In this document: positions 4,480 through 32,100 of the stretch, in pieces
Layout: every line of letters begins with the position of its first letter
How positions within the stretch are numbered: the stretch's first letter is position 1
Assembly: GCA_002773855.1 (NCBI GenBank)
Contig: PEZY01000005.1
Location: 122,532 to 186,531 of the forward strand
DNA length: 64,000 nt
Reading direction: 5' to 3'
Source of the DNA: Candidatus Buchananbacteria bacterium CG10_big_fil_rev_8_21_14_0_10_33_19
Lineage (GTDB): Bacteria > Patescibacteriota > Patescibacteriia > 2-01-FULL-39-33
Program-made: the position numbers and the translations under genes
The notes under the pieces: model-generated
Seen by the model: the letters and a program-made list of their open reading frames with translations, nothing else
The model's database searches: none
What the model was told of the DNA's origin: nothing

Positions 4480-5364
4480 ATGTATAATCAAATCGATTCC
4501 AATAAAAGAAAAACCTGGGCTTTGATAATTATTTTTATCAGTTTAATTTCACTACTTGGTTATTTTGTCGGCTATATAAGTGAAGCTGGTAACAGTATTT
4601 TAATCATCGCTATTATTATTTCAATTGCTATGAGCTTGTTTGGTTATTTTTCTGGTGACAAGGTCGCCCTAGCCACCTCTGGTGCCAAAGAAATTACCGA
4701 AAATGATAACCCTTATGTTTATCGGATGGTGGAAAATCTTTGTATTACTGCTGGTATGCCTGTGCCAAAAGTTCATCTAATAAATGACGAAGCTATTAAT
4801 GCTTTTGCTACTGGTCGCGATCCTAAGCACGCTTCTATTGCTATTACCACTGGGGCGGTAGCCAAATTAGAAAATGAAGAGTTAGAAGGGGTTATTGCTC
4901 ATGAATTAGCTCACATTAAAAATTATGATATTAGACTAATGACAGTCGTTATTATTTTAGTTGGTATTATCGCCCTCTTATCTGATTTATTTTTACGAAT
5001 GACTTTCTTTGGTGGTGGTAAACGTGATAATGATCGTGGTGGTAATCCAGTTTTATTAATTATTGGCTTAGTTTTAATAATTCTCTCACCAATTATCGCT
5101 CAGTTAATAAAATTTGCTGTGTCCAGAAAACGTGAATATTTAGCTGATGCTTCTGGCTCACTTCTAACTCGTTACCCTGAAGGCTTAGCTAAAGCTTTAG
5201 AAAAAATAGAAAACGATCATACTATTTTAAAACGAGCTAATAACGCTACTGCTCATTTATACATTTCTAGTCCGTTTCGTGGCACCAAGAAATTCTTAGC
5301 CAACGCTTTCTCCACTCACCCACCACTTCAAGACCGTATTTCTAAATTAAGATCAATGAATTAA
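4480..5364 (+). CDS. htpX: Zinc metalloprotease HtpX (peptidase M48)
   Basis: HELAHIKNYD (HExxH) motif, multiple TM segments, typical HtpX length (294 aa). Confidence 0.85.
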   Translation: MYNQIDSNKRKTWALIIIFISLISLLGYFVGYISEAGNSILIIAIIISIAMSLFGYFSGDKVALATSGAKEITENDNPYVYRMVENLCITAGMPVPKVHLINDEAINAFATGRDPKHASIAITTGAVAKLENEELEGVIAHELAHIKNYDIRLMTVVIILVGIIALLSDLFLRMTFFGGGKRDNDRGGNPVLLIIGLVLIILSPIIAQLIKFAVSRKREYLADASGSLLTRYPEGLAKALEKIENDHTILKRANNATAHLYISSPFRGTKKFLANAFSTHPPLQDRISKLRSMN

Positions 5365-5367
5365 ACT

Positions 5368-7851
5368 ATGGAAGAAACTTTCGAAAAATTCTCTAACAAC
5401 TACAAAAAATCCCTCCAAGCTGCTGCTGAACTGGCGACTGATCTTCAACATGAGTCTGTTAATCCTTGGCATATCCTTTACGGTTTAATTTGTCAAAAAG
5501 GCAGTGTCGGCGCTGAACTCCTAAATTCTCTAGAATTAAATACTGATAACATTAAAGATACTATTATCAAATTATCACTAGGCGATTTTAAGTTAGAATT
5601 AAAAACCGCTCCGAAATTTTCTGAATCTGCCAAAAAAATAATTCAAAAGTCGGTTAAAATTGCCTATATTAACGATCATAAATATGTTGGTACCGAACAC
5701 TTACTAGCCGCTATTATAGAAGCTAGTGATGATAATATCGAAAAGCTACTTAGTATTCTAAAAATTTCTAAAGCCGAGATAACCTCTCAAGTTATTACGA
5801 TGTTAAAAAGTGCTTCCAAAATTCCAGACTTAACCGAAACTTTTAAAGTTACAGACAAAGATTTAGAATATGATGAATATGATGACTTGGAAAAGCGCCA
5901 ATCTATTTTGGATTTATTTGGCACCGAATTAACTGCTGCCAAAATCCAGAAAAAAATTGACCCCATTATTGGCCGAGACGAAGAACTTTTAAGAATTATT
6001 CACATCCTATCTCGACGTAATAAAAACAATCCAATTATCTTAGGCGAACCCGGTGTTGGTAAAACTGCTATTATCGAAGGTTTGGCCAAAAAAATTGTCG
6101 ACGGTGACGTGCCAGAAGCCTTACTAAACAAAAAAATTTACGCCCTAGATTTAACCTCGACCGTTTCTGGTACTATGTATCGCGGTGAATTTGAAGGTCG
6201 CATCAAACAAATAATTGACGAGGCTAGAAACCGGCCAGAAGTTATTTTATTTATTGATGAAATCCATAATATTGTTGGAACTGGTTCAGCCTCTGGCTCG
6301 ATGGATGCTGCTAATATTTTAAAACCGGCCCTCGCTCGTGGTGAGATCAGATGCATTGGAGCTACTACTTTTACTGATTACCGTAAAAGTATCGAAAACG
6401 ACCCAGCTCTGAATCGCCGATTTCAACCAGTAAAATTAGCCGAGCCCTCCGAACAACAAGCTAAAGAAATATTACACGGTATCAAAAACTATTTTGAAAA
6501 TTTTCACCGAGTCGAAATTAGCGACGAGGCTATTGATTACTCTGTGGAATTAAGTCAAAAATATATTACTGATAAATTTTTGCCAGACAAAGCTATTGAT
6601 TTAATCGATGAAGCGAGTGCGGCTATTAGAGTTAACAAAAAACCCACTAGAGTAGAGCAAAAAATCAAAAAACTTAAATCAGACATTATAGATCTAAAAA
6701 ATAAAAAGAACCAAGCCGTCATCAAAGAGGATTATGACTTGGCCATAAAATTAAAAGACCAGGCTCAAGAATTAGATGATGCATTAACTAAAATAGAAAA
6801 AAGCCTTGAAGCCCAAAAAAATAAAATGATTGGCACTATTTCTGGCCAAAATATCGCCAAAATAGTTTCTAAAGCCACTGGTATTCCCACCGAAGATTTG
6901 ATTTCATCAGAAAAAAGAAAAATCATGCGCCTGGATAATTCCCTGCAAAAGAAAATTATCGGCCAAAACACAGCTACCGCTCTGATTTCTGATTTTATCA
7001 AAAGAGCCAAAGCTGGCTTAACCCCAGACAATAAACCCTTGGCCTCATTTTTACTAGTCGGCCCCAGTGGTACCGGCAAAACTCACACTGCTAGAATTTT
7101 AGCCGAGGAATTATTTGGTGATCGTGATGCTTTGATTAAAATCGACATGTCCGAGTACAGTGAAAAATTTAATACTTCCAAATTAATTGGTGCTCCAGCT
7201 GGCTACGTGGGTTACAAAGAAAGTGGCCATTTAACCGAGAGAGTTAAGCATAAACCCTATTCTATTGTTTTATTTGATGAAATTGAAAAAGCCAATCCAG
7301 AAATATTTGATTTACTATTACAAGTTTTAGAAGACGGCTACCTTACAGATGCCGCTGGTACCAAAATAAATTTTCGCAACACTATTATTTTGATGACTTC
7401 CAATATTGGATCACATCATTTTAGCAAAAAAAACGAAACCATTGGTTTTGATTCTTCAATTATTAATTCAGTAACTAATGATATTAATAATAAAATCATT
7501 GATGATATCAAAGAATTCTTTAAAATAGAATTTATTAACAGATTAGATGAAATAACTTGCTTTTCACCACTATCAGAAAATGACTTAGAAAAAATAACCA
7601 AACTAGAACTTAATGATTTATCAACTAGATTAAACAAAAAAAATATTACCGCTGAATTTGATCAATCAGCTATTAAACTAATAGCCAAAGAAAGCAAACA
7701 AATAGATCAAGGCGCTAGAGGTATTAAAAAAGCCATTCAAAAATTAATAGAATCTAATATCTCCCAAAAAATATTAGAAGACAAAATAATTAGTGGCTCC
7801 AGAATAAAAATAAATACCGAAAAAGAAAAAATTGTTATCAAAATTAAATAA
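5368..7851 (+). CDS. clpC: ClpC/ClpB-type AAA+ chaperone ATPase (Clp N-domain repeats plus two AAA modules)
   Basis: GEPGVGKT and GPSGTGKT Walker A motifs in two AAA domains, Clp_N repeats at the N-terminus, 827 aa. Confidence 0.85.
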
Positions 7852-9895: not shown

Positions 9896-10630
9896 ATGAA
9901 GGCCAACAAAAAAACCAACCAAAGAAATTATTTAAAATTTATTCTTATAGCTATTGGAGTTTTTTTTATTACTCTACTATTATTGGCTATGTTTACTACC
10001 AAATCAGTAGCTACTGTCAATAATCCTCTGGCCAATATACTCAAAGACTTCGAAAACCAATCTACAATTGAATCTTCTAATTTATTAAGTTATGTAAGGC
10101 AAAATACTATCACCGAACCAACTATTAATAGTCACTCTCCTGTTTTAGGCAATACCGATGCTCCAGTTACAATATTTGAATTTTCCTGTTACGGTTGCCC
10201 AGCTAGTCGTGATATTCAACCTGTTTTAAAAAATATTTTAAATAAATACTCTGATCAAGTAAAAATTGTTTGGAAAGACCTGCCTATACCAGACCTCTAT
10301 CCTCAAGCTGAATTAGCTCATTTAGCTTCTAGATGTGCTGGGGATCAAGGTAAGTTCTGGGAATACCATAATTTACTATGGCAAAACCAAGATAACTTTT
10401 CGATTGATAATTTAAAAAGCATTGGTAAAAGTTTAAAACTTGATACCAATAAACTATCCAACTGTATAAATACCAAACAATTTCAAAATTTAATTGACCA
10501 AGATGTTAGTGAAGCCGCTGATTTGGCAATTTCTGGCACTCCACATTTTTATGTCAACAATCAAGAAATCTTTGGTGTGGCCACCCTAGAAGATTTCGAA
10601 ATAGTTATTAATGCCGAACTAAACAGATAA
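9896..10630 (+). CDS. DsbA-family thiol:disulfide oxidoreductase (thioredoxin fold)
   Basis: N-terminal TM anchor, CYGC CxxC active-site motif in thioredoxin-like context, 244 aa. Confidence 0.65.
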   Translation: MKANKKTNQRNYLKFILIAIGVFFITLLLLAMFTTKSVATVNNPLANILKDFENQSTIESSNLLSYVRQNTITEPTINSHSPVLGNTDAPVTIFEFSCYGCPASRDIQPVLKNILNKYSDQVKIVWKDLPIPDLYPQAELAHLASRCAGDQGKFWEYHNLLWQNQDNFSIDNLKSIGKSLKLDTNKLSNCINTKQFQNLIDQDVSEAADLAISGTPHFYVNNQEIFGVATLEDFEIVINAELNR

Positions 10631-11745
10631 TGAAAATAAATCAAAAAAAACTAATTATCATCTTCTTACTTTCATTTTTTTTAATGAACGTATCGAATTT
10701 TTTCGGCAATAATATTGCCCTGGCTCAAGGCGAGGCTGAAGGTGAATCCACAGGCGATTCAGAAACAAGCAATACAATTACCTTTACGCCCAATGTTCCT
10801 TTTGGAGATTTCACAGGCGATATACCGGTTGATAGCCAAATACTTTTTAAATATCTTTCTGCTTGGTACGGCTTTGTGGTCGGAGCTGTTGGTATTCTAG
10901 CCACGGTGATTATTATGTGGGGTGGTTTTAAATGGCTCACCTCTCGAGGTAATGCTGCGGCAATTTCTGATGCTAAAGATAGAATTTGGTCGGCGATTAT
11001 TGGTTTAGTTTTAGTTTTTTTATCTTACAATTTATTATATTTAATTAATCCTAGACTACTAACTATTACTCTGCCAGACTTAAAAACAGTTGCTGGTAGC
11101 CATGGCTTTGTTACTCAATCATCTACATTGCCAAGTACTACAACTCAACAACCTGGCACTAGACAATCAGCTAGTGATTTATGTCAAAATTCTAGTAATA
11201 ATGTAATAGATTATAGTAATGTCTCGCCTAGAAATCCTGGGGTAAACTTTCCCACTGAAATGAACGGCTGGTTTGATCAATATGGTGATAGTTATGGTGT
11301 CGACTCAGATATGTTAAGAGCTATTTCTGCCGCTGAGTCTAGTGGTAATCCTAGGGCTGTTAGTCCAGCTGGGGCTTACGGCTTAATGCAAATACTCCCA
11401 TCTACGGCTACTGCCGTGGTCGCTCGTGACTCCAATCTTAGAAATTTACCAGAATTTTCCGATGGTCAAATATCTGGAACGGAATTAATAAATAACCCAG
11501 AGTTAAGCGTGGCTATATCCGCCAGTTTTGTCAGTGCTAATCAGAGTGGACTAGGCCGAGCTGATATTTTTGCCGGCTACAATGCTGGCTATGGCACCGG
11601 ATCTGGCAATGCCCTTAGCCAAAGTCGTGACTGCCCAACTCCTGGAACTAGAGCTTATACTTGTTGTACTAATCCTGGAGGTTTAATTGAAACCCAAGGC
11701 TATGTTAACAACACTATGTCATATTATAATTATTACTCACAATAA
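10630..11745 (+). CDS. T4SS-pilin-like (VirB2/TrbC-like) N-terminal module fused to a C-terminal lytic transglycosylase (SLT) domain
   Basis: Hydrophobic pilin-like core WYGFVVGAVGILATVIIMWGGFKWLTSRGNAAAISDAKDRIWSAIIGLVLVFLSYNLLYLINP. SLT motif AISAAESSGNPRAVSPAGAYGLMQILPSTA in the C-terminal half. ATGA start/stop overlap with dsbA. Confidence 0.6.
   Translation: MKINQKKLIIIFLLSFFLMNVSNFFGNNIALAQGEAEGESTGDSETSNTITFTPNVPFGDFTGDIPVDSQILFKYLSAWYGFVVGAVGILATVIIMWGGFKWLTSRGNAAAISDAKDRIWSAIIGLVLVFLSYNLLYLINPRLLTITLPDLKTVAGSHGFVTQSSTLPSTTTQQPGTRQSASDLCQNSSNNVIDYSNVSPRNPGVNFPTEMNGWFDQYGDSYGVDSDMLRAISAAESSGNPRAVSPAGAYGLMQILPSTATAVVARDSNLRNLPEFSDGQISGTELINNPELSVAISASFVSANQSGLGRADIFAGYNAGYGTGSGNALSQSRDCPTPGTRAYTCCTNPGGLIETQGYVNNTMSYYNYYSQ
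10865..11051 (+). repeat. Near-identical ~187-bp tract shared by the two pilin-like genes (copy 1)
   Basis: 10900-11051 matches 11973-12124 with only a few mismatches, far above the neighbouring divergence. Confidence 0.85.
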
Positions 11746-12626
11746 TGAAAAAAATTACTATTATATTAGCCTGTTTATCATTGTTATTAATATGGTCTAA
11801 TAACTACGTCTTAGCCGCTGATGCAGATTTACCAGTCACCACACCAGCTGAAGTCACAAAAAATTGTGATAACTGTCTTAATGTCCCTATCGGTGGAGTC
11901 AAAACCATACCAAGTTTTTATGAATACATACAATTATGGTATAGTTTTGTGGTCGGTGTAGTTGGCATAATAGCCACGGTTATTATTATGTGGGGTGGTT
12001 TTAAATGGCTCACCTCTCGAGGTAATGCGGCAGCCATTGGTGATGCTAAAGATAGAATTTGGTCGGCGATTATTGGTTTAGTTTTAGTTTTTTTATCTTA
12101 CAATTTATTATATTTAATTAATCCAGAATTAGTTAAAATAAAACTACCAAGTCTCACAACCATTTCTACTACCAATTCACCAACTCATTCATCAAATAAT
12201 CAACCGCCAACTCACCCCGCTGAAGGAGCTAAGTTTGATTTAGAAGCTTTGAAAAAAACCTGTCTAGACGCTATTACCGTTACTGGAGCTGGCTTAAACT
12301 GTAATAGGTTAAATATATCTGGTCCAGTCTACGAAGCTACACTACTAGGATCTAGCGAAATGGGTTATTGGTATAATATTAACGACAATCTTTTAGAAGG
12401 TGTTCAAGAAATAGTTAACCTAATTGGTCAACCTCAAACCATTGAAGGTGTTGATGTTTATGTTATGCCAGGCACTAATCTGGCCTTTAGGGAAATAGAC
12501 AATAATATTTGGCGAGTCGAGACCACTAACCTTGTTGGTTTAATGTTGGAACAAGACACTAATAGCCAAAACATAGTCGCCTGGCCAATGGATATCTGGA
12601 ATAATCTTCATAATATACCAAACTAA
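11745..12626 (+). CDS. T4SS-pilin-like protein (paralogue of 10630..11745 without the SLT domain)
   Basis: Same ~60-aa hydrophobic pilin-like core, near-identical at the DNA level. Different C-terminal domain. Confidence 0.6.
   Translation: MKKITIILACLSLLLIWSNNYVLAADADLPVTTPAEVTKNCDNCLNVPIGGVKTIPSFYEYIQLWYSFVVGVVGIIATVIIMWGGFKWLTSRGNAAAIGDAKDRIWSAIIGLVLVFLSYNLLYLINPELVKIKLPSLTTISTTNSPTHSSNNQPPTHPAEGAKFDLEALKKTCLDAITVTGAGLNCNRLNISGPVYEATLLGSSEMGYWYNINDNLLEGVQEIVNLIGQPQTIEGVDVYVMPGTNLAFREIDNNIWRVETTNLVGLMLEQDTNSQNIVAWPMDIWNNLHNIPN
11938..12124 (+). repeat. Near-identical ~187-bp tract shared by the two pilin-like genes (copy 2)
   Basis: See copy 1. Confidence 0.85.
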
Positions 12627-17068: not shown

Positions 17069-17158
17069 CAGAGAGGAAGGGATTCGAACCCTCGATACGC
17101 TTTAAAAACGTATAACGGATTAGCAATCCGTCGCTTTCAACCACTCAGCCACCTCTCT
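17069..17158 (-). tRNA. tRNA-Ser (anticodon GCT), 90 nt with long variable arm
   Basis: Acceptor AGAGAGG/CCTCTCT, anticodon stem ACGGA/TCCGT with loop TTGCTAA, long variable arm, T-loop TTCGAAT. Confidence 0.8.
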
Positions 17159-17167
17159 ATATTGTCA

Positions 17168-17196
17168 CCACTTCGTTCACTGCGGAGAGGGTGGGA
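17168..17196 (-). repeat. 29-nt direct repeat (copy 1) duplicating the 3' terminus of tRNA-Ser(TGA) plus 14 nt of its 3' flank
   Basis: cacttcgttcactgcggagagggtgggat is identical to 17360-17388. Confidence 0.85.
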
Positions 17197-17359
17197 TCGA
17201 CATAAATCGTCCGCCGAATGCGGGACGATTTATTCTGCCCTGGGTTGGCGTCTAATGCTTCCTATAGTCGCATCATCCGATCGTTCGCCTTATTCGCTTC
17301 GGCTTCCGCCTAGCTCATAGCTCACTTCCAACCCGTTCGAATCCCTACCCATCCTTGTT
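17197..17359 (-). ncRNA. Candidate structured small RNA in the GC-rich (~52% GC) spacer between the two tRNA-Ser genes. Contains SRP-RNA-domain-IV-like motifs (GGC-GGAA-GCC tetraloop hairpin followed by GAAGCG...AAGGCGAAC, then GGAAGCA...GCCAACCCAGGGCAGA) and a perfect 11-bp hairpin.
   Basis: Compositional anomaly against the ~33% GC background. Read on the minus strand: TGAGCTAGGCGGAAGCCGAAGCGAATAAGGCGAAC versus E. coli 4.5S GGTCAGGTCCGGAAGGAAGCAGCCAAGGCAGAT. Hairpin ATAAATCGTCC...GGACGATTTAT. No ORF. Confidence 0.25.
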
Positions 17360-17373
17360 CACTTCGTTCACTG

Positions 17374-17460
17374 CGGAGAGGGTGGGATTCGAACCCACGG
17401 TCCCCGTGAAGGGACTTCAGTTTTCAAGACTGACGCATTCGACCACTCTGCCACCTCTCC
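17374..17460 (-). tRNA. tRNA-Ser (anticodon TGA), 87 nt with long variable arm
   Basis: Acceptor GGAGAGG/CCTCTCC, anticodon stem TCAGT/ACTGA with loop CTTGAAA, variable arm AGTCCCTTCACGGGGACC, T-loop TTCGAAT. Confidence 0.8.
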
Positions 17461-17594
17461 ATATCAATGATGACTAAGGCACTTTATCACAAAAAAAACA
17501 TTCTGTAAACACCATAAATAACCACAAACATATATGAATTGGCAGCCATCTTTTAATTATTATAACATAAAATCAACAAAACAAACAAAACCCA

Positions 17595-18878: not shown

Positions 18879-20777
18879 TTATTCTTGAGATAAAGATTCC
18901 TCAAATTCCTTTTTAGCTTCTTCGATTTCTAATAACTGTCTAGGATCAGAAGTAATCAATTGGTCTTCTGAATAAGAAGCTACCACCTTAATAGCCGCAT
19001 GTTTAGCTCCAGCAAAAAATATACCCTCACCTACACCACACTCTAATAATAAATATTTTTCACCCTCTGTTAATAAAAATGTTTTTTGGATTAAATCCAC
19101 TGCAGCTGGTGACTGTTTCATCAATAATTGAAGTGATGAGTTATTAACAATAGCTTGACCATAAGGCGAAGTTAAAAAATCATTAACATCCTGAGTAATA
19201 GTCGTTACACCTAAATAATATTTTCGACATCTTTTAACTAGAGCGAATATAAACTTAGCACTATCTTCTCTTTGCATTAACCACCAAGCCTCATCAACAA
19301 CTAATATTCTCTTTTTAAGTTCACTTCTTACTACATTCCAAACATAATTAACAATCGTATAAATTGCTAGTGGCTTTAATTCATCCTCTAAATCTCTCAC
19401 GCTAAAAGCTACTAATTTATTGTTCATCTGAACATTAGTTGGATTGTTCAATAAGCCGGCAAATGTACCTTCAGTATATTTTTTTAATCTTAAAACTATG
19501 TTTTCACCATTTTCCATGCCTTCTAAAATTTCCTGAAAATCCTGCATAACTGGTGGCTCAACTCTAGTTAAATCAGCTGAAGCGGTAATATCTTTTTTGG
19601 CATAAGTCTCTAGTAGCGCTCGATCAATAATCGAATCTTCTTCTGGAGTAATATCACCAATCATTAATTTAATTAAGCCCTTTACAGTAATTACACCGCC
19701 TCTAATAATATCATCGGCTTTAGCATCTTCGCCAATTGATCTTGGCAAATCAAAAGGATTAATTTTACTTTCGGAGTTTAGTGACACGTCAATATAGGTT
19801 CCGCCAACAGCATCACAAAGATGTTTATATTCTCTTTCTGGGTCGATAATAATAACCTCTGTACCAAACATCAAGCTTCGCAGCACTTCTAATTTAATAG
19901 TGTAAGATTTACCAGCGCCAGAAGTTGCAAAAACTACAGAATTAGCATTTTGCAAAGAAAACCTGTCAAACAAAATTAAACTATTATTATGACGATTAAT
20001 ACCAAACAACACACCACCATCAGAAGTTAAATCAGAAGACACAAACGGAAAAGAACTAGCCGCTGGTGAAGTATTCATATTAGTCAAAATTTGTAAATCA
20101 TCAGAAGCAATCGGCAATGTAGAATTAAAGCCCTGTTCTGCCTGATAAAACACTCTCCTAGAATAAACTAATGTTGAACCTAGTATATTTTCTATGTTCT
20201 CACAAGAAGTGTCTAATTCTTCTAAGCTCTTACCGTAAACTGTGATGTACATAGCTGTTTGGAAAAAATGTTCCACACCTTGAGTTAAATCATCTCTTAA
20301 TTTTTCCATATCTCGTAGTGCCGTTTCTCGCAGTGGATCACGTGGAGCCCCTTTTTCCGCATCAGAAATTAATCCAGCCTGTAGAGCACCAACCTTCTTC
20401 TTTAATTGTTTTAAAATAACTGAAGCCTTAACCGGATAAAAGTAAATAGCAATATCAGCAGTAGTATCCATATTAATAATCGGCGCAAACCAACCAACAT
20501 TAATATATCTTGGATACTCAATCACAAATATAGTTTTAATAAAATAATCACCCAATTTAATATACGAACTAGTTACCTCCAGTGAGGCCGGCGAAATTAA
20601 ATCTCGAACAGAGACAACCCCTTGACGATAAACACGCTCTTCTTCCAAGATTTTACGACTATCACCAATATCCTGAACCATCATCGCTTTTCTTTGCTGG
20701 GCGTTTAAAGCTTGGGCTTTTTCCTGTTCTAATTGTTTTATTTTATCAACTTGATTTAACTGATTCGGATCAAACAT
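18879..20777 (-). CDS. VirB4/TrbE/CagE-family type IV secretion ATPase
   Basis: Walker A FATSGAGKS, Walker B-like ILVVDEAWWLM (the DEAW motif typical of VirB4), 632 aa. Confidence 0.7.
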   Translation of the reverse strand: MFDPNQLNQVDKIKQLEQEKAQALNAQQRKAMMVQDIGDSRKILEEERVYRQGVVSVRDLISPASLEVTSSYIKLGDYFIKTIFVIEYPRYINVGWFAPIINMDTTADIAIYFYPVKASVILKQLKKKVGALQAGLISDAEKGAPRDPLRETALRDMEKLRDDLTQGVEHFFQTAMYITVYGKSLEELDTSCENIENILGSTLVYSRRVFYQAEQGFNSTLPIASDDLQILTNMNTSPAASSFPFVSSDLTSDGGVLFGINRHNNSLILFDRFSLQNANSVVFATSGAGKSYTIKLEVLRSLMFGTEVIIIDPEREYKHLCDAVGGTYIDVSLNSESKINPFDLPRSIGEDAKADDIIRGGVITVKGLIKLMIGDITPEEDSIIDRALLETYAKKDITASADLTRVEPPVMQDFQEILEGMENGENIVLRLKKYTEGTFAGLLNNPTNVQMNNKLVAFSVRDLEDELKPLAIYTIVNYVWNVVRSELKKRILVVDEAWWLMQREDSAKFIFALVKRCRKYYLGVTTITQDVNDFLTSPYGQAIVNNSSLQLLMKQSPAAVDLIQKTFLLTEGEKYLLLECGVGEGIFFAGAKHAAIKVVASYSEDQLITSDPRQLLEIEEAKKEFEESLSQE

Positions 20778-20789
20778 AAATAAAATTTA

Positions 20790-21467
20790 TTAATATTGTT
20801 CAATATCTAATTTATTAACATCAGACATTTTTTGATTTTCAGACATTACTGGATTGTAGGTATTATAAAACAATTCAATAAGTGATTGGGTATTTAAAAT
20901 TGACGCCCTCAGACCCATACTAGACAAGCCAGAAACTATTTTATCAACACCAATAAATAAATCCTTATGGCGCTTAGCAAATTCTCTTTGATTTAACTTA
21001 ATTAACGTTGTTGGTGACACTATATCACTACTTCTCTGCCAAAAATTTCTTTTCTTGCCAAATGATGGATTATAATAAACTACTACATAGAATCTTTTGG
21101 TCATAATATCACCCAATTCTACTAATTCAGAAATATATTTACGATATTCAGCTGTTTGTAATTTTAACAGATCATTGGTCTGTTCTTGCTCAGCTTTTTT
21201 AATATCTAACAAATAATTATCTAAATTTAATTTTCTAGACTGAATCACAATTTGTAATGTAGTATCTAAAGAATTTAAAAATGACACGTAGCCAGATATA
21301 ATGGCATTTTGTTCGTCTTCTGATTTAAGGGCAAAATTAATACTCGACACTAAAAGCACAGCTCTAAGTGTACCGTCTTTCATTACTACACTATCATCTC
21401 TAACCTCTGAAATAGTCATATAACTTTGAGTACTGGGTGTTGATTTTGTTGCTTTTCTATCCGCCAT
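20790..21467 (-). CDS. Hypothetical protein in the T4SS-like operon (225 aa)
   Basis: ORF tightly packed between VirB4 and a small membrane protein. No domain recognised. Confidence 0.45.
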   Translation of the reverse strand: MADRKATKSTPSTQSYMTISEVRDDSVVMKDGTLRAVLLVSSINFALKSEDEQNAIISGYVSFLNSLDTTLQIVIQSRKLNLDNYLLDIKKAEQEQTNDLLKLQTAEYRKYISELVELGDIMTKRFYVVVYYNPSFGKKRNFWQRSSDIVSPTTLIKLNQREFAKRHKDLFIGVDKIVSGLSSMGLRASILNTQSLIELFYNTYNPVMSENQKMSDVNKLDIEQY

Positions 21468-21489
21468 AATATAATTTATACCTAGTTTA

Positions 21490-21948
21490 TTATTTTAAAT
21501 CATTTATCGAATTAATTATACCCTCACCCTGATAAACGCCGCCAGTATCCACAATTAATGATAGCTCCGATAAATTTGAGGCATTAATAATCTGTCTTTT
21601 AATTTTGGGTACTACTATATTTACTTCTACTGGTTTTTTTAAGCTTAATTTAAGATCTTTTTCATTAACCACTTTTCGCCAAATCTTTAATTTGGGATTT
21701 TTTAAAGTAGCTATAAAATTAAGTAAAAAGTTATGAAAAGGCTGACCATTAATTTTAGCAAAAGCCACGATCATAGTTAAAGCAAACATCAAAAAACCAG
21801 ATACCACAAATGACGAAAAATAAAAAGATTTATAAAAGATAAAAATAATTATCGAACCAATTAAAATTTCAATAAACTGACGAACAGTAATTGGTCCAAT
21901 TATCTTATCTTCAACGTCCAAAAATTGTGGCACGGTTATTTGTTCCAT
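21490..21948 (-). CDS. Small two-TM membrane protein (VirB3/PrgI-like position immediately upstream of the VirB4 module)
   Basis: 152 aa with two adjacent hydrophobic helices. Gene order comparable to VirB3-VirB4 in T4SS loci; the similarity is positional only. Confidence 0.35.
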   Translation of the reverse strand: MEQITVPQFLDVEDKIIGPITVRQFIEILIGSIIIFIFYKSFYFSSFVVSGFLMFALTMIVAFAKINGQPFHNFLLNFIATLKNPKLKIWRKVVNEKDLKLSLKKPVEVNIVVPKIKRQIINASNLSELSLIVDTGGVYQGEGIINSINDLK

Positions 21949-21950
21949 TT

Positions 21951-23480
21951 TTAATACCTTAAATCTTTATTTAATTCCATCACCGAGTTAAATTCTTCTA
22001 TAGATAACGTAGGCTTACCATCTTGCATTCTTTCATTAATTATATCATCAATACCCCTTTCTTGTCGCATACTTTCTTGACCTAACAACCTGTAAAACCG
22101 ATTTACCTCGCTTTTATGCCAAGCATCTATGCCCTCCAATCTCTTAGCGTAAGAATCATTTTCTAATAGTTCTATCTTTTGCTTGATTTTAGCCGTAGCT
22201 TTGTGTGGTGTTTCACCAAGTCGTCTAAAATTAATCAAAGTCATAGTACTTAATTCTTCTATCGGCCCAACTAGAGCTCCACCGACTAAAACACCATCAA
22301 CTAATTTTTTACCAAACCTAATATTTTTTGGTGGTAAGCTAGACTGAGGCATTGGCTGTGGCTGTGGTACTGGTATGTTTTGCTTAATTTCTGGCTGAAC
22401 TGCTTTTAATTCAGTAACTACTGGTGATTTTGGTGTTTCTACTTTTTTAACCGAAGTAAACTTATCATGATTTAAATCAGTATTTAAATCATGATTTATT
22501 TTTGGAAATAAATTATTATTATCTAAATTAACCATTTTAGGCTTGACCATCAAATCATCACCATGAGGAAATTTAATAACCGGCAAACCATCCTCTTCTT
22601 CAATTATTAATTCAGTATGAATGGGTTGTTGCTTGATCGGTTTTTCGATAGTTTTTTCTATCACCATCTCTTCTACCTTTTTCGGCAGACTAATCGGTTG
22701 TTTGTTATCAATAGTTTTTTTAACATCCAAGCTAATTTTACCACGGGTAAATGGTTTTTTAGTCGGAAAAGAAATTGGTTTAACTCCATTTAAATCGCTA
22801 CCAATCTTAGACAATAAACCCTGATCAATTTTAGATTTAGCTAAGGCCACTATTTTTTTAGCCTGCTGGTCATCCATTTCTAAGCCACCAATTTTACGAC
22901 TCTTTTTTAAAGCTTCAATAGTTTCTATTTCATCTCTAATATCCTTTAATCTAGCGATAATGATATTTTTTAAACGACTAAACATTACTTCGTCACCATC
23001 CAAACTATAACCAGATTCTGATATTATTAACTCGGCCAAAGTAGTATAATCATAAACTTTAGCTGATGAATCAATATTAGAAATTATTTGCTTAATTTCT
23101 TCGTCATCGTCAGGAGAAAATGAAATAGAAGTATTTAAATTACTATCATTTTTTGGCAACTCAGTTTTTATTTCACTAGCCGCTGATCTGCCAAGCTCAG
23201 CCAATGCCTCTTCAACACCACTTATTCTATCCTTGATTGGTAATAACCTTTTTTCAATAGCGCTAATAGTAATTTTTTTTACCATTGAATCATCTTTTCT
23301 AATAACTTTTTTCATCTCTGAATAAAAATTTTTAATGTCAGCGCTACCAATAATTATTTTAGAAATTAATTTTATAATAGCTTTCACTTCGTTATCAGTC
23401 AAAGCAAACGGCGCCAACCAAGGGTTGAGCTTTTTTAATTCGACTACATCATCAAATATATTTTGAATTTCTTCGGCCAT
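21951..23480 (-). CDS. Hypothetical protein, Pro/Lys-rich central region (509 aa). T4SS-like operon member.
   Basis: Long ORF, no domain recognised. Low-complexity P/Q/K-rich linker. Confidence 0.45.
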   Translation of the reverse strand: MAEEIQNIFDDVVELKKLNPWLAPFALTDNEVKAIIKLISKIIIGSADIKNFYSEMKKVIRKDDSMVKKITISAIEKRLLPIKDRISGVEEALAELGRSAASEIKTELPKNDSNLNTSISFSPDDDEEIKQIISNIDSSAKVYDYTTLAELIISESGYSLDGDEVMFSRLKNIIIARLKDIRDEIETIEALKKSRKIGGLEMDDQQAKKIVALAKSKIDQGLLSKIGSDLNGVKPISFPTKKPFTRGKISLDVKKTIDNKQPISLPKKVEEMVIEKTIEKPIKQQPIHTELIIEEEDGLPVIKFPHGDDLMVKPKMVNLDNNNLFPKINHDLNTDLNHDKFTSVKKVETPKSPVVTELKAVQPEIKQNIPVPQPQPMPQSSLPPKNIRFGKKLVDGVLVGGALVGPIEELSTMTLINFRRLGETPHKATAKIKQKIELLENDSYAKRLEGIDAWHKSEVNRFYRLLGQESMRQERGIDDIINERMQDGKPTLSIEEFNSVMELNKDLRY

Positions 23481-26147: not shown

Positions 26148-29100
26148 TTAATTTTTGTTAACATCCAGCCTAATACTGTCTTCCGATGTATTATAATAAT
26201 TCCAATTATCATACACCTTAATATCTACTTTTATTTTACAGCTATCTTTAGTACAACAAGGAATATTAGTAGCTCCGGCATTACAAGTTGTTGGTGTAAC
26301 ACTTTTTACCTTCCAAAAATCAAACAAATGATACAGTAAAAATGGATTTTCAATATTGGTTCTATTTCTTAGCGATACCCCGCTCACCTTAGAATGTTCA
26401 CCATCACCCCACTTAATAGTGTACGCGGTAATTGGTAACTGATCAGGATCAATCTGAGTAGAAAAAGCTAGTTTGGCCAAGCCCACACCTCTATTAATAA
26501 CTGGCGTTACTGGCTCGGTCGAATTCACATTATTTATTTTAATCTCTTTAACTAAAGGATTAATATGACAAGGCTGATTAGAAGAAGCGTCCCTAGTGGC
26601 TTCATTACAAATATTTAGAGGTACGGTTAAATAACTAGTAGTTAGATCTTCTCGTTCAATATAACTACCACCTCTTTCAGTATCTGGAGTTTGACAAGGT
26701 GATGTGGGGGTTTGAGCCGCTGTATCACCACAAACATTCCAACGCCACCACCACTCGCCATAGCTTTGAGCAAATAATTGCTCTAAACCTTTTTGGGTAT
26801 GCAGTTCACCCATTCGAGCCTGGTATGGTGCTTGAAAACCGCCTAATCTTGGTGGCTCATAAAGCAATGGGGTGTTATATATACCCTCTCGACTACTCCA
26901 ATTAGAAGGGTTTGAACTACCAGGTGGCGATACCAAAGCACCAAACGGTTGATAATCTGAAGACTGATACTCTTTATTTTGTGTCGCTGCATCTAAAAAT
27001 TTATTGTAATCAAACGGATCATAATAATAATAACTGCCATCTATTAAATCAACACCATCAATCCATTCACTAAGCGGAGCATCTGGTTTAGCATTTCTAT
27101 CAATATTAATATAACCAGAACCCTTAGCTACTCGATTAGCATAGGCTTTATTTTCACCAGAAGTATTAACCACTCGCACTAAATTATCACAATAACCAAC
27201 ATCAAAATTTCCACTGACATTCATAGTTATACCAATAACATCAGCTTCGGCAGTAGAGCGGACAAACCAAGCCGCACCTAAAATATCACCTGGTAAATCC
27301 GGAATTGGGTCAGAAACTCCACTACCTGTAATACTATCAGATTGACTATCATCAATAATTTTTAGACCCATTAGTGGTCCAAAAGCTAATGTGCCATTAG
27401 AAAATTTCGAATTATATGTCGCTGTTAGGCCAGCTATCACTTCACCATAATTTTTAGTGGCATCGTCCCAATTTAATTCCACAGCAAAACATACTGCAAC
27501 ACCAAAGTCTCCGGCATCAATTAATTTTCCACAAACAGGTATTGCCCCCCAACTACCCCATTCTTTTTTTGTAGTATCATATTTAAATGTCAAATTAACT
27601 GGAATCATAGCATATATCGTATTGTCTTTAGTATAACCAATACCAGAAACTCTTGTTTTTATCTCCTTCACATAAGGATACCTAAACAAAGGTCTAAAAT
27701 CATCTTTAATTTTAAACGAGGAAAAATTCATTTGTGTGCCAGTATTTGTATCTACAAATCCAGCCACCACCTCTTTGGCATCAGAACTTAAGGTTAAAGC
27801 ATAGCCAAATTCAGAAAAACTAACATTAAAACTTTTCTTATCAACACAATAATCCAATGGTACTCTATCATTATAACCACCCACTTCATTTAAAACTTCA
27901 CCTTCTAATTGGTCTACCGGCCACCACTGTAAACATTGTTTAGAATTAGCTGGATCCACTAATAAGCAATAACCGTAGTTACCATAAAATAAATTATTAC
28001 CTTCTAAATACCGGCAAGACAAAGAATCCTCGGCTGGATAAATACGACAAGTTCTAGAAACGTATTTTTCTGTTGGCACTGTGCTATCACTTACTTCTAA
28101 AACCGGCTTAAGAGATATATCATCAAATAAAGCCACGCCACCCAATTCACATGGAGTTAATTTATTATTATCATCACAAACATTACAACTACTTTTGTTA
28201 TTAGCGTTAGCACAAGCCGAAGCTGGGTTTGATAAATTCGATAAATTAATATAATTCTTTAATTTAATTTGGATCTTATCGGTATTAGGCAAAGACGTAA
28301 ATTCATAAATTTTCTTGGTCCAAGGTAAACCAGAATCTAGCGATAATTCACTTTTAATTTCCCAGTTACCCCAACCACCATTTTTATTATGCTGACGGTA
28401 CTGGATTTGAGATTTAATAATTTTGGATTTATCAGAATAATTTAAACCAGCGGAATTAATCCAACCAGATAAAATATATGTACTATCACTAAAGACATCA
28501 ATTTCTTCTGATAGAGCTTCATAGAATGAATTGACTATCAAATATCTAGACCCATCTGGACTACCGATAACATCTTTGGCTACAACGAATTCATAATCCT
28601 GCCAACCACTGGTTTCTGATTTGTAAGTAGCTGTATCTAATCCCGGTGACACTGGTGACCAACCAATTGGCTCGGCCGAACTGCCAACTACTGATTCAAA
28701 ACTACCATTAGTAACATCAGCGGAATCACCATGTTGGAACATTTCATAATAAGGATAATAACCAGTAACTTTTTGATTATCGAGGAATTTATAGCCTACT
28801 GATGTATAACCAGTTTTATTAACATCTTTTAATGTATATTCTTCATTGGTTACTAAATTTGATTTTAAAATAAAGTTGGTACAAACCCCGTTTTCATCAA
28901 CTGAAGCACACAAACCCAAATTTAAACATCTGTCATTATTACCATAAATTGGATCAACATTATCTGGATCATCCTTTTCATAAGTAGTACAGTAAAGCCA
29001 ATTATAACAAGCTCGGTCTGGTTGAACTTTTAAAATCACATTAGAATCACCGGTATCTGGTGCTGTTACAAATTCAGGAGGAATCGGTTTTTGATCATTA

Positions 29101-32100
29101 TCTGCTAATTGTTTGCGGTAACTAGCGTCGGCATCAAAAGACAAATAATCAGCGTTTCTTACTTTAACATTATCTGAAGATGGATTAATAGACCCGCGAT
29201 CATTAAACAAAACACAGCCGGAATTATAATCAACTAAACCATTACAACTAGTATAATCCACTTTATTAGACAAGGCATAATATACACCAGCTTGAACCAA
29301 ACTCAATTTAGCATCAACAACGTCTTTGGTTGGTAAATTAACATTAACACTACATGGCAAGCCAGAATTATCCACAATATAAAATCGACCAGTGGCTGAT
29401 TTTGGTGATGCTACTACACTAGCGCCACCAACATTCAAACTTAAATCCGGTGAAACAATAATACCATTACAACTAGGATCAATAGTAATATAAGATTTAT
29501 TAGTCAAAGATTCATCAACAGCTAGTGAATATAGAGTATGGGCTGACAAACTGATTGTTTGGTACCAATTAGTGCCACCATCATTCCAATGATCTGGCAC
29601 AGTATCTTCATCTACATCCTGTGATGTATCGGCATTCAAAATTTCATTTTTATAAACCTCGGTTGATGGATCTATGTATTCGGTACAACTATTTTGATCA
29701 GTTGGACAAGACCCTACCCAATTTTGATAAGTAATAGCTGGGCCTGGGTTTTCATTTGGCCATTCATTTTGACTAGGCAAACCATAACTATTAAACCAAC
29801 CCACTGGTTGTAACTTTTGATCAGAAGAGCCGGTGCCAATGGTTTGTAAATAAGTTACATCACAAGGCTGATTAGTACCCTTCTTATACCACTTAGCCTG
29901 AATCTGACCAGCGTCTGTCCGGTATTCACATAATTTATCTCGTGGATTTTTAAAATAAGAGACGCTTCTACTGCCTACAAATTCTTCACACCACAAAGCA
30001 TTAGCCTGACATAAATCAGTAGCATATCTGTCTGGTTGATTTTTTAGATAAACAGTATTATAGCCAATCACTTCATCCTGATTATTAATAGTTGGTAATC
30101 CTAAAGCCGAACAACCCTTACTATCTGAACCACAAGCGAATTTAGGGTCATTCACCATATAAACATAATTATCATTTGGTACTGTAACTTCTGATTTATC
30201 TCCATCATTAAAAGTGTCGCCAAAATAAGAATTAGAGTTATAAGTATCAATCAATTGTTCGCAACCCACAGCATCAGATCGACACAAATTTTCAAAAGAT
30301 TTCAAAAACCAATTTTGACCACTGCGGTCTCGATATTCCTGACAACCAATCATCTTGCCGGGATTACTTCTGATTGGGTTGAGAGCATCGCCAGTACCAT
30401 ATGGATCGTTAAGATTGTTATCACAAGTAAACGGTGTAAACCAAGAATTTTCAATAGCGTAAACACTTTGAGGCAATTCTTTTAAAAGAATATTATCTAT
30501 GTACACGGTTTTACCGCTAGGTATATTAATTTCAATATTTTGTTCAAAGTTACCAGTATTATTACCCCAATCAATAGTGACTGGGCCTAGTTCATAGCGA
30601 TTCCAATTAATAGTTAACGGTACTGGGATATCAGCTGTTGTGATAACGTCTGGATGTCCAATCATAAATGAACTTTCAGCTGGTGCTTCAGAAAATCTAA
30701 CCGAGCTTAAACTGATATTCTCGTCAGCCTTAGCCCAAAAACTAATCGAATAATTCTTACCTCTTTGAACTAGAACAGTTTTAGTAAATTGTTTTGAGTC
30801 ATTTATTGCATTACTAATAGAATTACCACCCGGATGAGTAGCTTCGCCCACCACAGTACCGCCCTGCCAACTAGAAATACCAGATTCAAAATCAGATAAA
30901 AATATATTTTTAAAACTATTACCTTGATTACCAGTGTATTCTCGACAACCTTTTAAGTTAGCCGAACAAGTGCCACCTTGATTGGGAATCGCCATATAAA
31001 TACACTCATTAAACGAATTCCAATAACCTTGGTTATTTCGACAATCTTGGGCTGCTTCACTGTCGTCATTTTGAGTTTGAGTTCGACGATATGGATGGCA
31101 ACTATTATCAACATAAATCACCCGAGACAATAAACGATAATGAATTGTGCCATCAATGTCATAAAATTCTCGACAATCCGGATTAGAATTTAAATCGGAG
31201 GCCAGACAAGCAGCATAATTTACGTCAGGATCACTACTTGGTGCTGGATCACTACAAACATTTTCACCAGCTAAATTATTTGGATAACTAATATTAGTAC
31301 ACGGAGCACTTGAATTATTGGATTCTTTAAGTTCAAAAACCCTAAGCTGATAACCAGTCGTATCACTACCCTCCCAAGTATAATAAGTAGCTTCATCGTC
31401 ATAAGCATCTGGTTTTTGACAAGTTCGTAGCTGAGTATAATATTCTAAAGCCTCACCACCTCTATCAATTTCATCTAAATTAGTAAATTCATCACAACCA
31501 ACAGCCGCGGCTGAACAAGCTTGAATGGGATCATTATTTATAAACTGTTTATATTTTGACGAAACAAAACTAGTTGGCTCTTGTTTATATACTTGATAGC
31601 CCACACATTCAGCTGGACAAACATCGGCCGAGGTAATAGTGCCTGGCACCGCTGGGTCTCCATTAGTTGGCGTATACAGTTCGCAATTCATTTCATCTTT
31701 AATACAAACACTAGAATAGCTAGAGCAAGCCGGATTACGATTTATAATAACTTGTTGCAAGCTAGTTAAACCAGTTGGCCATTGAATACCAGGGGTTACT
31801 AAATCAGAATCATAACAATTATAATAAGCTGGCGCTTTCTTCAGATAAGCTAATTGATAATCTGGCCGCTGACTAGGATCATAAGAAGTGTAAGCCGAAG
31901 GCAAAACCACTTCTGGCAAAACTTCTTCTAATTTAACGGCGTCAAAATAAACTTCTTTCTTACCTGTACCACCACCTTGTTCGATAGTTAATTTTGGTAT
32001 CACTATCTCGTCAGCTTTATTCCACACAAAACTAGTACTAATTGTAGTCCATTTATACAAATCTGCTTCTTTAAAATATTCTGGAGTAGTATTTATCGTC

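Follow-up and report, generated by a model that had tools for sequence, protein, structure and literature searches.

A structured GC-rich module behind tRNA-Ser and tRNA-Gln genes of Buchananbacteria/Falkowbacteria-like bacteria: a candidate non-autonomous element

We have analysed a stretch of 64,000 nt from contig PEZY01000005.1 (assembly GCA_002773855.1) of Candidatus Buchananbacteria bacterium CG10_big_fil_rev_8_21_14_0_10_33_19, hereafter referred to as the window, in which two tRNA-Ser genes on the minus strand enclose a short GC-rich spacer. This spacer contains one copy of a family of structured, non-coding modules that lie directly behind tRNA genes in several related bacteria of the Candidate Phyla Radiation (CPR). 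The genomes of CPR bacteria are very small and streamlined and, to our knowledge, very little is known of the non-coding RNAs or of the mobile DNA of these organisms.

Results

A GC-rich spacer between two tRNA-Ser genes

Both tRNA genes, tRNA-Ser(TGA) and tRNA-Ser(GCT), are genuine according to ARAGORN and Rfam (Table 1), and the GC profile bears out the GC-rich segment that a preliminary description of this DNA had placed between them: the spacer of 215 nt has a GC content of 50-57%, compared with ∼25-35% in its surroundings and ∼30% in the genome. Read along the minus strand, the order is ComF (18299-17595), a promoter-like site, tRNA-Ser(TGA), the spacer, tRNA-Ser(GCT), a small membrane open reading frame (ORF), tRNA-Arg and RecG, and neither a promoter-like nor a terminator-like site was found on this strand between the two tRNA-Ser genes.

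The 29-mer CACTTCGTTCACTGCGGAGAGGGTGGGAT, made up of the 15 nt of the tRNA-Ser(TGA) 3' end and 14 nt of its flank, occurs in two copies that are 100% identical and bracket 162 nt, and chance does not explain an exact 29-mer that recurs within 200 nt. The preliminary description had recognised this repeat and its composition correctly and had placed the second copy one nucleotide off; it had also reported a perfect 11-bp hairpin and a GGC-GGAA-GCC hairpin, both of which are present. The computed fold of the spacer has an energy of -73.6 kcal/mol (z = -3.9, with none of 200 shuffled sequences equally stable), and in it the second tRNA-3'-end copy has the 5' segment GGAUGGGUAGGGAUUCGA as its pairing partner. 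A 52-aa antisense ORF (17162-17320) that crosses the GC-rich structured core is read as spurious, and the candidate element in the window is non-coding, with no ORF counted as genuine.

The spacer was compared with the 4227 models of Rfam 15, both at the gathering threshold and at E<=10. At the gathering threshold only three tRNAs were obtained in the window, and at E<=10 the matches were limited to the flanking tRNAs and generic terminator hairpins, with nothing for the spacer (searches of 651 and 208 nt) or for a homologous copy (231 nt). A resemblance to signal recognition particle (SRP, 4.5S) RNA had been suggested on the basis of SRP-like strings, with a check against the SRP, 6S RNA and all other Rfam models; the strings are in the spacer, and an SRP or 6S identity is not supported, as neither RF00169 nor RF01854 matched at either setting, 6S and the other Rfam families gave no covariance-model match and the family is multi-copy within a genome. 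Furthermore, the symmetric loop of SRP helix 8 (AGG/AGCA around the GNRA) is absent by inspection, the GGAA tip being flanked by purine loops of 2-3 nt (NA / GA(A)), and a single, universally kept SRP gene is contradicted by the presence of at least four copies in GCA_030650095.1 and by the absence of the element at two of the loci described below (L087 and L133). A tmRNA or an odd tRNA was also considered and rejected: ARAGORN calls the two tRNA-Ser genes only, and a 13-bit 'tmRNA_permuted' match corresponds to the tRNA 3' end.

Anatomy of the module

On the tRNA strand, from 5' to 3', the order is as follows: the tRNA, whose final ∼15 nt, starting in the T-loop, are site X; in many copies a hairpin T that resembles a terminator; and then the module proper, with an inverted arm X', the helices P2, P3 and P4, an AGGRCAGA joiner, the helix P5, the junction GUCG(UA) and a second X. 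It is GC-rich and ∼180-230 nt in size. In the window, the X' arm has 20 nt that are 80% complementary to 17375-17394, and it can pair either with repeat copy 2, forming helix P1, or with the tRNA's own 3' end (duplex of -23.9 kcal/mol); the GGGATTYGAAC at the end of X' is conserved in all copies of the family. Hairpin T lies between the tRNA and X' in L082b, L091, L093, L096, L097, L131 and L137, and X-T-X' forms one long palindrome wherever T is present. The second X is located 204-224 nt past the tRNA end in most copies and matches the tRNA 3' end over 10-37 nt, running on into the tRNA flank in some of them. The direct repeats have lengths of 10, 11, 14, 17, 18, 27, 29, 32 or 37 nt, and their left boundary falls in the T-loop (AATCCC) in nearly all copies. 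There are also imperfect terminal inverted repeats (GGGATTCGAACG / CGTCGTAAATCCC, compared with CGTCG(TA)AATCCC), which coincide with the tRNA-derived sequence.

Table 1. Features of the tRNA-Ser locus and of the module in the window, in minus-strand order
Feature	Position	Strand	Basis or remark
Promoter-like site TTTACA-17-TAAAGT with TG	17481..17509	-	Upstream of tRNA-Ser(TGA); the only one on this strand before tRNA-Ser(GCT)
tRNA-Ser(TGA)	17374..17460	-	ARAGORN; Rfam 65.7 bits; its last 15 nt open direct-repeat copy 1
Direct-repeat copy 1 (site X and flank), ATCCCACCCTCTCCGCAGTGAACGAAGTG	17360..17388	-	Repeat search
Element extent	17181..17358	-	Family covariance model R1, 164 bits, E ∼1e-52, the window being a seed sequence of the model
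5' arm X', GGATGGGTAGGGATTCGAAC	17335..17354	-	Imperfect inverted copy of the tRNA T-loop, T-stem and acceptor 3' strand
Conserved core	17242..17334	-	P2, P3 and P4; RNAalifold and pair counts
P2, GGGUUGG x CCAACCC	17328-17334 x 17242-17248	-	6 of 7 pairs changed on both sides
P3, irregular hairpin with tip GGC-GGAA-GCC	Within core; tip 17301-17310	-	Covaries
P4, variable hairpin	17253-17275	-	Covaries
Single-stranded joiner, conserved, AGGGCAGA	17234..17241	-	Family consensus AGGRCAGA
P5, long hairpin of ∼14 bp	17202..17233	-	Perfect 11 bp (17202-17212 / 17223-17233), extendable to ∼14 bp; sequence differs among copies, pairing kept
3' arm: junction GTCG, then direct-repeat copy 2 (17169-17197)	17169..17201	-	Copy 2 equals the tRNA 3' end and 14 nt of flank
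tRNA-Ser(GCT)	17069..17158	-	ARAGORN, Rfam; starts 10 nt downstream of repeat copy 2

Copies in related genomes

The family was found at 11 sites in six related genomes, all of them directly 3' of tRNA-Ser(TGA), tRNA-Ser(GCT) or tRNA-Gln(CTG) and on the tRNA strand. It is specific to Buchananbacteria/Falkowbacteria-like CPR groundwater bacteria and apparently undescribed so far, no description of it having been found in the literature searched or in Rfam 15. The family covariance model gives scores of 88-187 bits on the copies, with the exception of the divergent L131 (41.7 bits) and of a partial copy in L093 (23.3 bits).

Homologues of ComF place the organism with Buchananbacteria-like members of the CPR. 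The gene order around the tRNA-Ser pair (PrgI-like, TraC-like and VirB4-like genes, an unannotated ORF, ComF, the tRNA-Ser pair, a small ORF, tRNA-Arg and RecG) is kept in the relatives, and the comparison of these loci, which the preliminary description had proposed, revealed that the presence of the element varies between them. Thus, L082 (ComF 60% identical) has two near-identical elements, located behind tRNA-Ser(GCT) and tRNA-Ser(TGA), respectively, and each of them finishes with a repeat of the 3' end of whichever tRNA is immediately upstream; L091 (ComF 47% identical) has one, behind tRNA-Ser(GCT); L084-86 (ComF 54% identical) has a miniature version with the same arms and hardly any core; and no element was found at the orthologous tRNA-Ser pair of L087-89 (ComF 58% identical). 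The earlier proposal that the duplication of the tRNA 3' end marks a small inserted or duplicated element is supported in its general lines, as orthologous loci carry the element, lack it or have it behind another tRNA.

A pattern scan of metagenome contigs gave seven matches, including new copies behind tRNA-Gln(CTG) downstream of dnaX (L093 and L096), a copy accompanied by a decayed tRNA remnant (L097) and a contig from the same strain as the window (L095); L094, L098 and L099 are chance pattern matches in high-GC coding DNA. Homologous copies behind tRNA-Gln are present in L093, L096, L131 and L134-137, and none was found behind tRNA-Gln in L133, whose DnaX (P0155) is also recorded on the 508,581-bp contig carrying L097. 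By means of a DnaX look-up, L137, which has two tandem copies behind tRNA-Gln, was assigned to the same genome as L082 (GCA_030650095.1), which thus harbours at least four copies, two at tRNA-Ser and two at tRNA-Gln. The contig Ga0491458_000023 has at least two, behind tRNA-Ser(GCT) (L091) and behind tRNA-Gln (L131), the latter being divergent and partly permuted. When the 86 tRNAs in 121 records were scanned for 3'-end repeats, we obtained only this family and two unrelated cases of paralogous tRNAs, and a broad ComF-based genome scan gave, among the matches listed, distant relatives only and no further copies.

Five of the ten contigs of the window strain (L126-L130) stop 127-530 nt after ComF, in or beside the tRNA/element region, which suggests that the repeats of the element break short-read assemblies.

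The fold is conserved among copies

RNAalifold applied to seven copies predicted 41 pairs, 17 of them with compensatory changes. In the 11 copies aligned to the model, 93% of the pair cells are standard and 24 of the 41 pairs are changed on both sides; none of 500 shuffles of this alignment reached any of the five measures used, and pairing falls to 32-51% when the partners are slid by 1-3 columns. The long P5 hairpin is 97% paired across the copies, with 7 of 10 pairs changed on both sides, and the outer P1 is 79% paired and weak or broken in half of the copies. The fold is therefore conserved with many compensatory changes, in line with the structured RNA that the preliminary description had offered as an alternative. 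G-U pairs outnumber A-C appositions in the inner helices (16 vs 6), and the GGAA loop is invariant in the seven copies that seeded the model, being deleted in the first element of L137 (L137-E1) and altered in subtype C (see below). Because of these two features we favour the tRNA-sense strand as the one that folds, either as RNA or as single-stranded DNA, the G-U/A-C comparison on its own being suggestive and not decisive.

Evidence for a turnover of copies among tRNA genes and genomes

A genome can have several copies, some of them in tandem, orthologous sites differ in whether they are occupied, and the subtypes of the cores do not follow the tRNA. A tandem array is found in L137, which reads X-T1-X'-coreA-P5-X-T2-X'-coreC-P5-X-T1. 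Three core subtypes can be distinguished, A (window, L091, L096 and L137-E1), B (L082a, L082b, L093 and L097) and C (L137-E2 and L093b), and these cut across both target tRNA and host genome; the orthologous tRNA-Gln site, for instance, has subtype B in L093 and subtype A in L096. Core identity is 84-98% within subtypes, and the ∼100-nt core keeps an identity of 84-91% between genomes with ComF proteins that are only 47-60% identical. The core of the window shares 87% identity with the L091 core, though their ComF proteins share 47%, and only 62-63% with the cores of L082, though ComF shares 60%. Arms can also be out of place: L082b, behind tRNA-Ser(TGA), retains a Gln-type remnant of the 3' arm (AAATCCCTGCC), and L086 has an X with a CCCAC T-stem adjoining a tRNA with CTCAC, that is, a 'foreign' arm.

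In L093, two cargo genes are located between a complete module and a second unit composed of P5-X-T-X' and a subtype-C core, in a segment of ∼2 kb (5109-7060, minus strand). One encodes a protein of 330 aa that is alpha/beta-hydrolase-like by its GxSxG-type HSFSG motif and has no Pfam match, and the other a methyltransferase-like protein of 301 aa. The loop of hairpin T is reverse-complemented between the two L093 copies (CTTTT at ∼7384 vs AAAAT at ∼5013, minus strand) and the stem is identical; an inversion between X and X' would be expected to give this product, but it is a single case and could be due to chance.

No dedicated enzyme was found with the module

Scans with Pfam, NCBIfam and PHROGs detected no integrase, reverse transcriptase or transposase near any copy or among the 30 ORFs of the window, and Pfam together with regular expressions found no recombinase, reverse transcriptase or GIY-YIG gene among the same 30 ORFs. 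No RVT domain was found downstream of the copies, where a tRNA, a membrane protein, DUF1697 or a hydrolase is encoded. A phage or viral origin was likewise discarded: there was no blastn match to the element in 50,697 phage records, and pattern scans of viral contigs gave zero matches or chance matches only, the latter rejected by the covariance model.

Discussion

We consider that there is about an even chance that the spacer between the two tRNA-Ser genes is one copy of a non-autonomous, structured module that resides 3' of tRNA genes and is mobilised by recombination. Such a module would spread and turn over by recombination at the repeated X sites, whose orientation alternates along the arrays (X, X', X, X', X), and the enzymes would be supplied in trans, either as a site-specific recombinase of the host or of a helper acting on the T-arm-like sites or, alternatively, through homologous recombination or gene conversion after DNA uptake; these genomes encode ComF, RadA and RecG. 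A duplicative or template-switching step may also take place, as suggested by L082b and L096, in which the repeats take in purely local flank together with an inverted copy of that flank. As to its expression, we infer that the element of the window is co-transcribed in a tRNA-Ser(TGA)-module-tRNA-Ser(GCT) precursor, because the sole promoter-like site is upstream and nothing terminator-like lies between the tRNAs. The module would be freed as the flanking tRNAs are processed, and the RNA could then fold into a compact five-helix structure closed by P1.

Several observations weigh against this proposal. No recombinase, circular junction or pair of empty and filled alleles within one population was found, and ten contigs of the same strain are all identical at the window locus, showing no empty/filled polymorphism. 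The repeat lengths of 10-37 nt, sometimes with local flank, are not predicted by a simple attP x attB identity, and therefore a duplicative or gene-conversion step is needed. Several tRNA-Gln copies have a good intrinsic-terminator-like hairpin between the tRNA and the module, so that their transcription is uncertain, and the 87% identity between the cores of the window and L091 could reflect vertical descent under purifying selection on a useful RNA. Moreover, the available material consists of 11 copies from six genomes; these copies are mutually related, and the pairs were counted in an alignment that had been fitted to the covariance model.

Among the alternatives, a housekeeping small RNA is the least improbable and is still, in our opinion, unlikely. 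It could be a divergent SRP/4.5S RNA, a 6S RNA or another protein-binding RNA, co-transcribed with the tRNAs, with P1 mimicking the acceptor/T-arm for RNase P, RNase Z or the CCA-adding enzyme and the tRNA-end repeat serving processing. The conserved, covarying fold with its GNRA loop, the GC island within an AT-rich genome, the location on the tRNA strand inside a tRNA operon and a P1 whose 3' strand is the same as a tRNA 3' end all fit with this possibility. There is also a likeness to SRP RNA in size, in the GGAA hairpin, in the paired ends resembling an acceptor stem and in the location, since the copies adjoin tRNA-Ser or lie just downstream of dnaX; ffs lies near tRNA-Ser or dnaX in many bacteria, and the 4.5S RNA of Escherichia coli is an RNase P substrate. 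However, neither an SRP nor a 6S nor any other Rfam model matches at E<=10, the SRP symmetric-loop motif (AGG...GNRA...AGCA) and the asymmetric loops are missing, and a housekeeping gene is difficult to reconcile with two to four copies of differing subtypes per genome, tandem arrays, a copy lacking the GNRA, permuted variants and a variable module that is dispensable at orthologous loci. In addition, P1 is weak or broken in half of the copies and its pairing often runs on beyond the discriminator base, which sets it apart from an acceptor mimic, and the repeats take in tRNA flank that has no role in processing. Similar considerations apply to tRNA-like processing signals, such as plant mitochondrial t-elements, the MALAT1 mascRNA, and pre-4.5S RNA and tmRNA as RNase P substrates. 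As in these, a helix containing a tRNA-3'-end strand could recruit RNase P or RNase Z to free the RNA from the tRNA operon, but P1 is a continuous, imperfect duplex with no T-loop, and its outer part is poorly conserved.

Slightly harder to accept, and also unlikely, is a self-targeting element of RNA or single-stranded DNA, in which X' would pair with the 3' end of the tRNA gene to guide insertion and the arms would be re-templated from the target, possibly through fold-back priming at the terminator hairpin, template switching or reverse transcription. Both arms do follow the particular tRNA: X' of L096 fits tRNA-Gln over 18 nt including tRNA-specific bases, in L093 and L131 the final 6 nt of the copy's own tRNA recur in X' as their reverse complement, L082b has an inverted (17-19 nt) and a perfect 37-nt direct copy of the local flank around a core with a Gln-type remnant, and X-T-X' yields long perfect palindromes. 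Nevertheless, the AAGATGGGATTCGAAC part of X' is common to copies at different tRNAs and is therefore inherited and not re-templated; no reverse transcriptase or nuclease is linked to any copy; the complement of CCA is absent, so that the primer is not a mature tRNA; and concerted evolution of nearby repeats can imitate re-templating. A protein-less, structured element of RNA or single-stranded DNA that finds tRNA genes by pairing of its X' arm with the T-loop/3' end, copies the target end in both orientations on insertion and builds cassette-like arrays able to trap cargo genes, such as those of L093, would be a tRNA-homing, nucleic-acid-guided mobile element of bacteria; the copies of local flank in L082b and L096 leave some room for it, but it is a doubtful proposition. 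An inert attL-attR scar, left by the deletion of an integrase-bearing island or prophage in tRNA-Ser and having no present activity or function, appears very unlikely to us. It would account for the direct repetition of the tRNA 3' end and for its start in the T-loop, which is the classic sublocation of integrase crossover, for the 2-kb segment with two cargo genes between module parts in L093 and for the other small insertions, such as GIY-YIG ORFs, that gather at these tRNA-Ser loci, but independent deletions would not converge on the same ∼100-nt core at 11 sites, three tRNAs and six genomes, with 84-98% identity within subtypes and compensatory changes. Neither an integrase fragment nor a match in phage records or viral contigs was detected; the decayed remnant of a larger integrase element contemplated in the preliminary description is not supported, in view of the 84-91% identity of the core across divergent genomes and of the lack of an integrase at any copy. 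Finally, the least credible explanation is that the structure is a passive and unselected by-product of errors of recombination or replication at highly transcribed tRNA genes, through microhomology-mediated template switching on the universal T-loop sequence. Junctions within the universal GTTCGAATCC motif, variable repeat lengths and complex inverted-plus-direct duplications agree with it, and it leaves unexplained a specific core with 24 compensatory pairs across genomes.

Returning to the recombination-mobilised module, its closest counterparts among known systems include tRNA-integrating islands, integrase-less cis-mobilizable elements (CIMEs) and the tRNA gene fragments that integrative elements leave behind (for background, see bioRxiv 10.1101/2022.07.05.498093). 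Like islands and CIMEs, the module sits at the 3' end of a tRNA that stays intact, with a direct repeat that starts in the T-loop (10-37 nt), it accretes in tandem at one tRNA, and its presence varies among relatives, the tRNA-Ser loci being occupied in the window, L082 and L091 and empty in L087-89, and the tRNA-Gln loci being occupied in L093, L096, L131 and L137 and empty in L133. Unlike the islands, it measures only ∼200 nt and carries no gene, neither its own sequence nor the 64 kb around it showed an integrase, it has an extra inverted copy of the site and a covarying RNA-like core, and one core occurs at three tRNAs. From its sequence features, the module seems to behave like an integrase-less (CIME-like) derivative of a tRNA-integrating island, that is, as a small site-specific, non-autonomous element.

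The dif modules of Acinetobacter plasmids are segments bounded by inversely oriented XerC/XerD pdif sites (PMC6449649, PMC13141974). They resemble our module in that arrays of short sites in alternating orientation delimit small, shufflable modules (compare L137 and L093), and in that they have no recombinase of their own and use that of the host; similarly, no recombinase was found with the module here. In contrast to dif modules, the sites described here resemble the T-arm/3' end of a tRNA and not dif, and the modules consist of non-coding structured sequence or terminator hairpins. An involvement of Xer in the movement of the module is pure conjecture.

Small, mobile, GC-rich palindromic elements of AT-rich genomes include bacterial miniature inverted-repeat transposable elements (MITEs), Correia/RPE-type elements and the GC clusters of yeast mitochondria. 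The module shares with MITEs and GC clusters its small size, its non-coding and multi-copy nature, its character as a GC island and the possibility of being co-transcribed and folded. It differs from MITEs in lacking a target-site duplication of fixed length, its repeats measuring 10-37 nt, and from both in its strict specificity and orientation at tRNA 3' ends and in having a multi-helix core with a GNRA hairpin, which is no simple palindrome. The shape of the module (closing P1, P2-P4 and a long P5) also recalls that of retron non-coding RNA (msr-msd), in which the inverted repeats a1/a2 close the RNA and the msr stem-loops precede a long msd hairpin, but no conserved context for a branching G can be assigned and, unlike in retrons, no reverse transcriptase gene lies immediately downstream.

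All these data indicate that even in CPR genomes there is a structured element that codes for no protein, is present in multiple copies, is strictly specific for tRNA 3' ends, forms tandem arrays and can flank cargo genes. If it were mobilised in trans by a host recombinase, it would be a new, small model for the site-specific shuffling of modules, and if its RNA were functional, it would be an undescribed RNA class with tRNA-linked expression. On a practical level, the family could account for the assembly breaks right behind these tRNAs in L126-L130, and it serves as a warning for annotation, as strings such as GGAAGCA or GGCAGA are no evidence of SRP RNA.

Other observations at these loci

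Tiny GC-rich palindromes of the form CCTGCC-TACCGGCAGG are found in L082 (5475-5492), L137 (6812-6832), L093 (4845-4890, minus strand) and L087 (3840-3890); they interrupt the 3' arms of several elements, occur elsewhere as well and look like a separate, smaller repeat.

The tRNA-Ser loci of the relatives contain small GIY-YIG ORFs. In L084-L086, tRNA-Ser(TGA) has a 316-nt insertion (4856-5171) at its anticodon loop whose only ORF is an 88-aa GIY-YIG ORF, and a duplicate of the tRNA 5' half, of 38 nt, lies upstream; the tRNA 5' half encodes the C-terminus of the ORF, and the anticodon TGA serves as its stop codon. Further small GIY-YIG ORFs are found beside ComF/tRNA-Ser in L054 (4776-5250) and L006 (5605-5895). 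In L054 the ORF is followed by GTCG and a copy of the tRNA-Ser(GCT) 3' end, which is the junction of the element, and then by a tRNA-Ser 5' fragment broken by GC-rich hairpins.

In L041 (5229-5565), from Saccharimonadales, three copies of the tRNA 5' end GCGCCCGTAGCTCAGTGGAT lie between two tRNA-Arg genes and constitute a different kind of repeat. In L087 (5410-5575) there are, according to ARAGORN, two tRNA-Arg(GCG) genes side by side, of which the second is shorter (67 nt) and may be a partial duplicate.

In the window itself, there are a 3003-aa ORF and a type-IV-secretion-like gene set around the locus (26148-35159, minus strand; 10630-12626, plus strand; 18879-23480, minus strand). This set includes type IV secretion system pilins, an SLT transglycosylase and ORFs syntenic with the VirB4/TraG-like, TraC-like and PrgI-like genes of the relatives.

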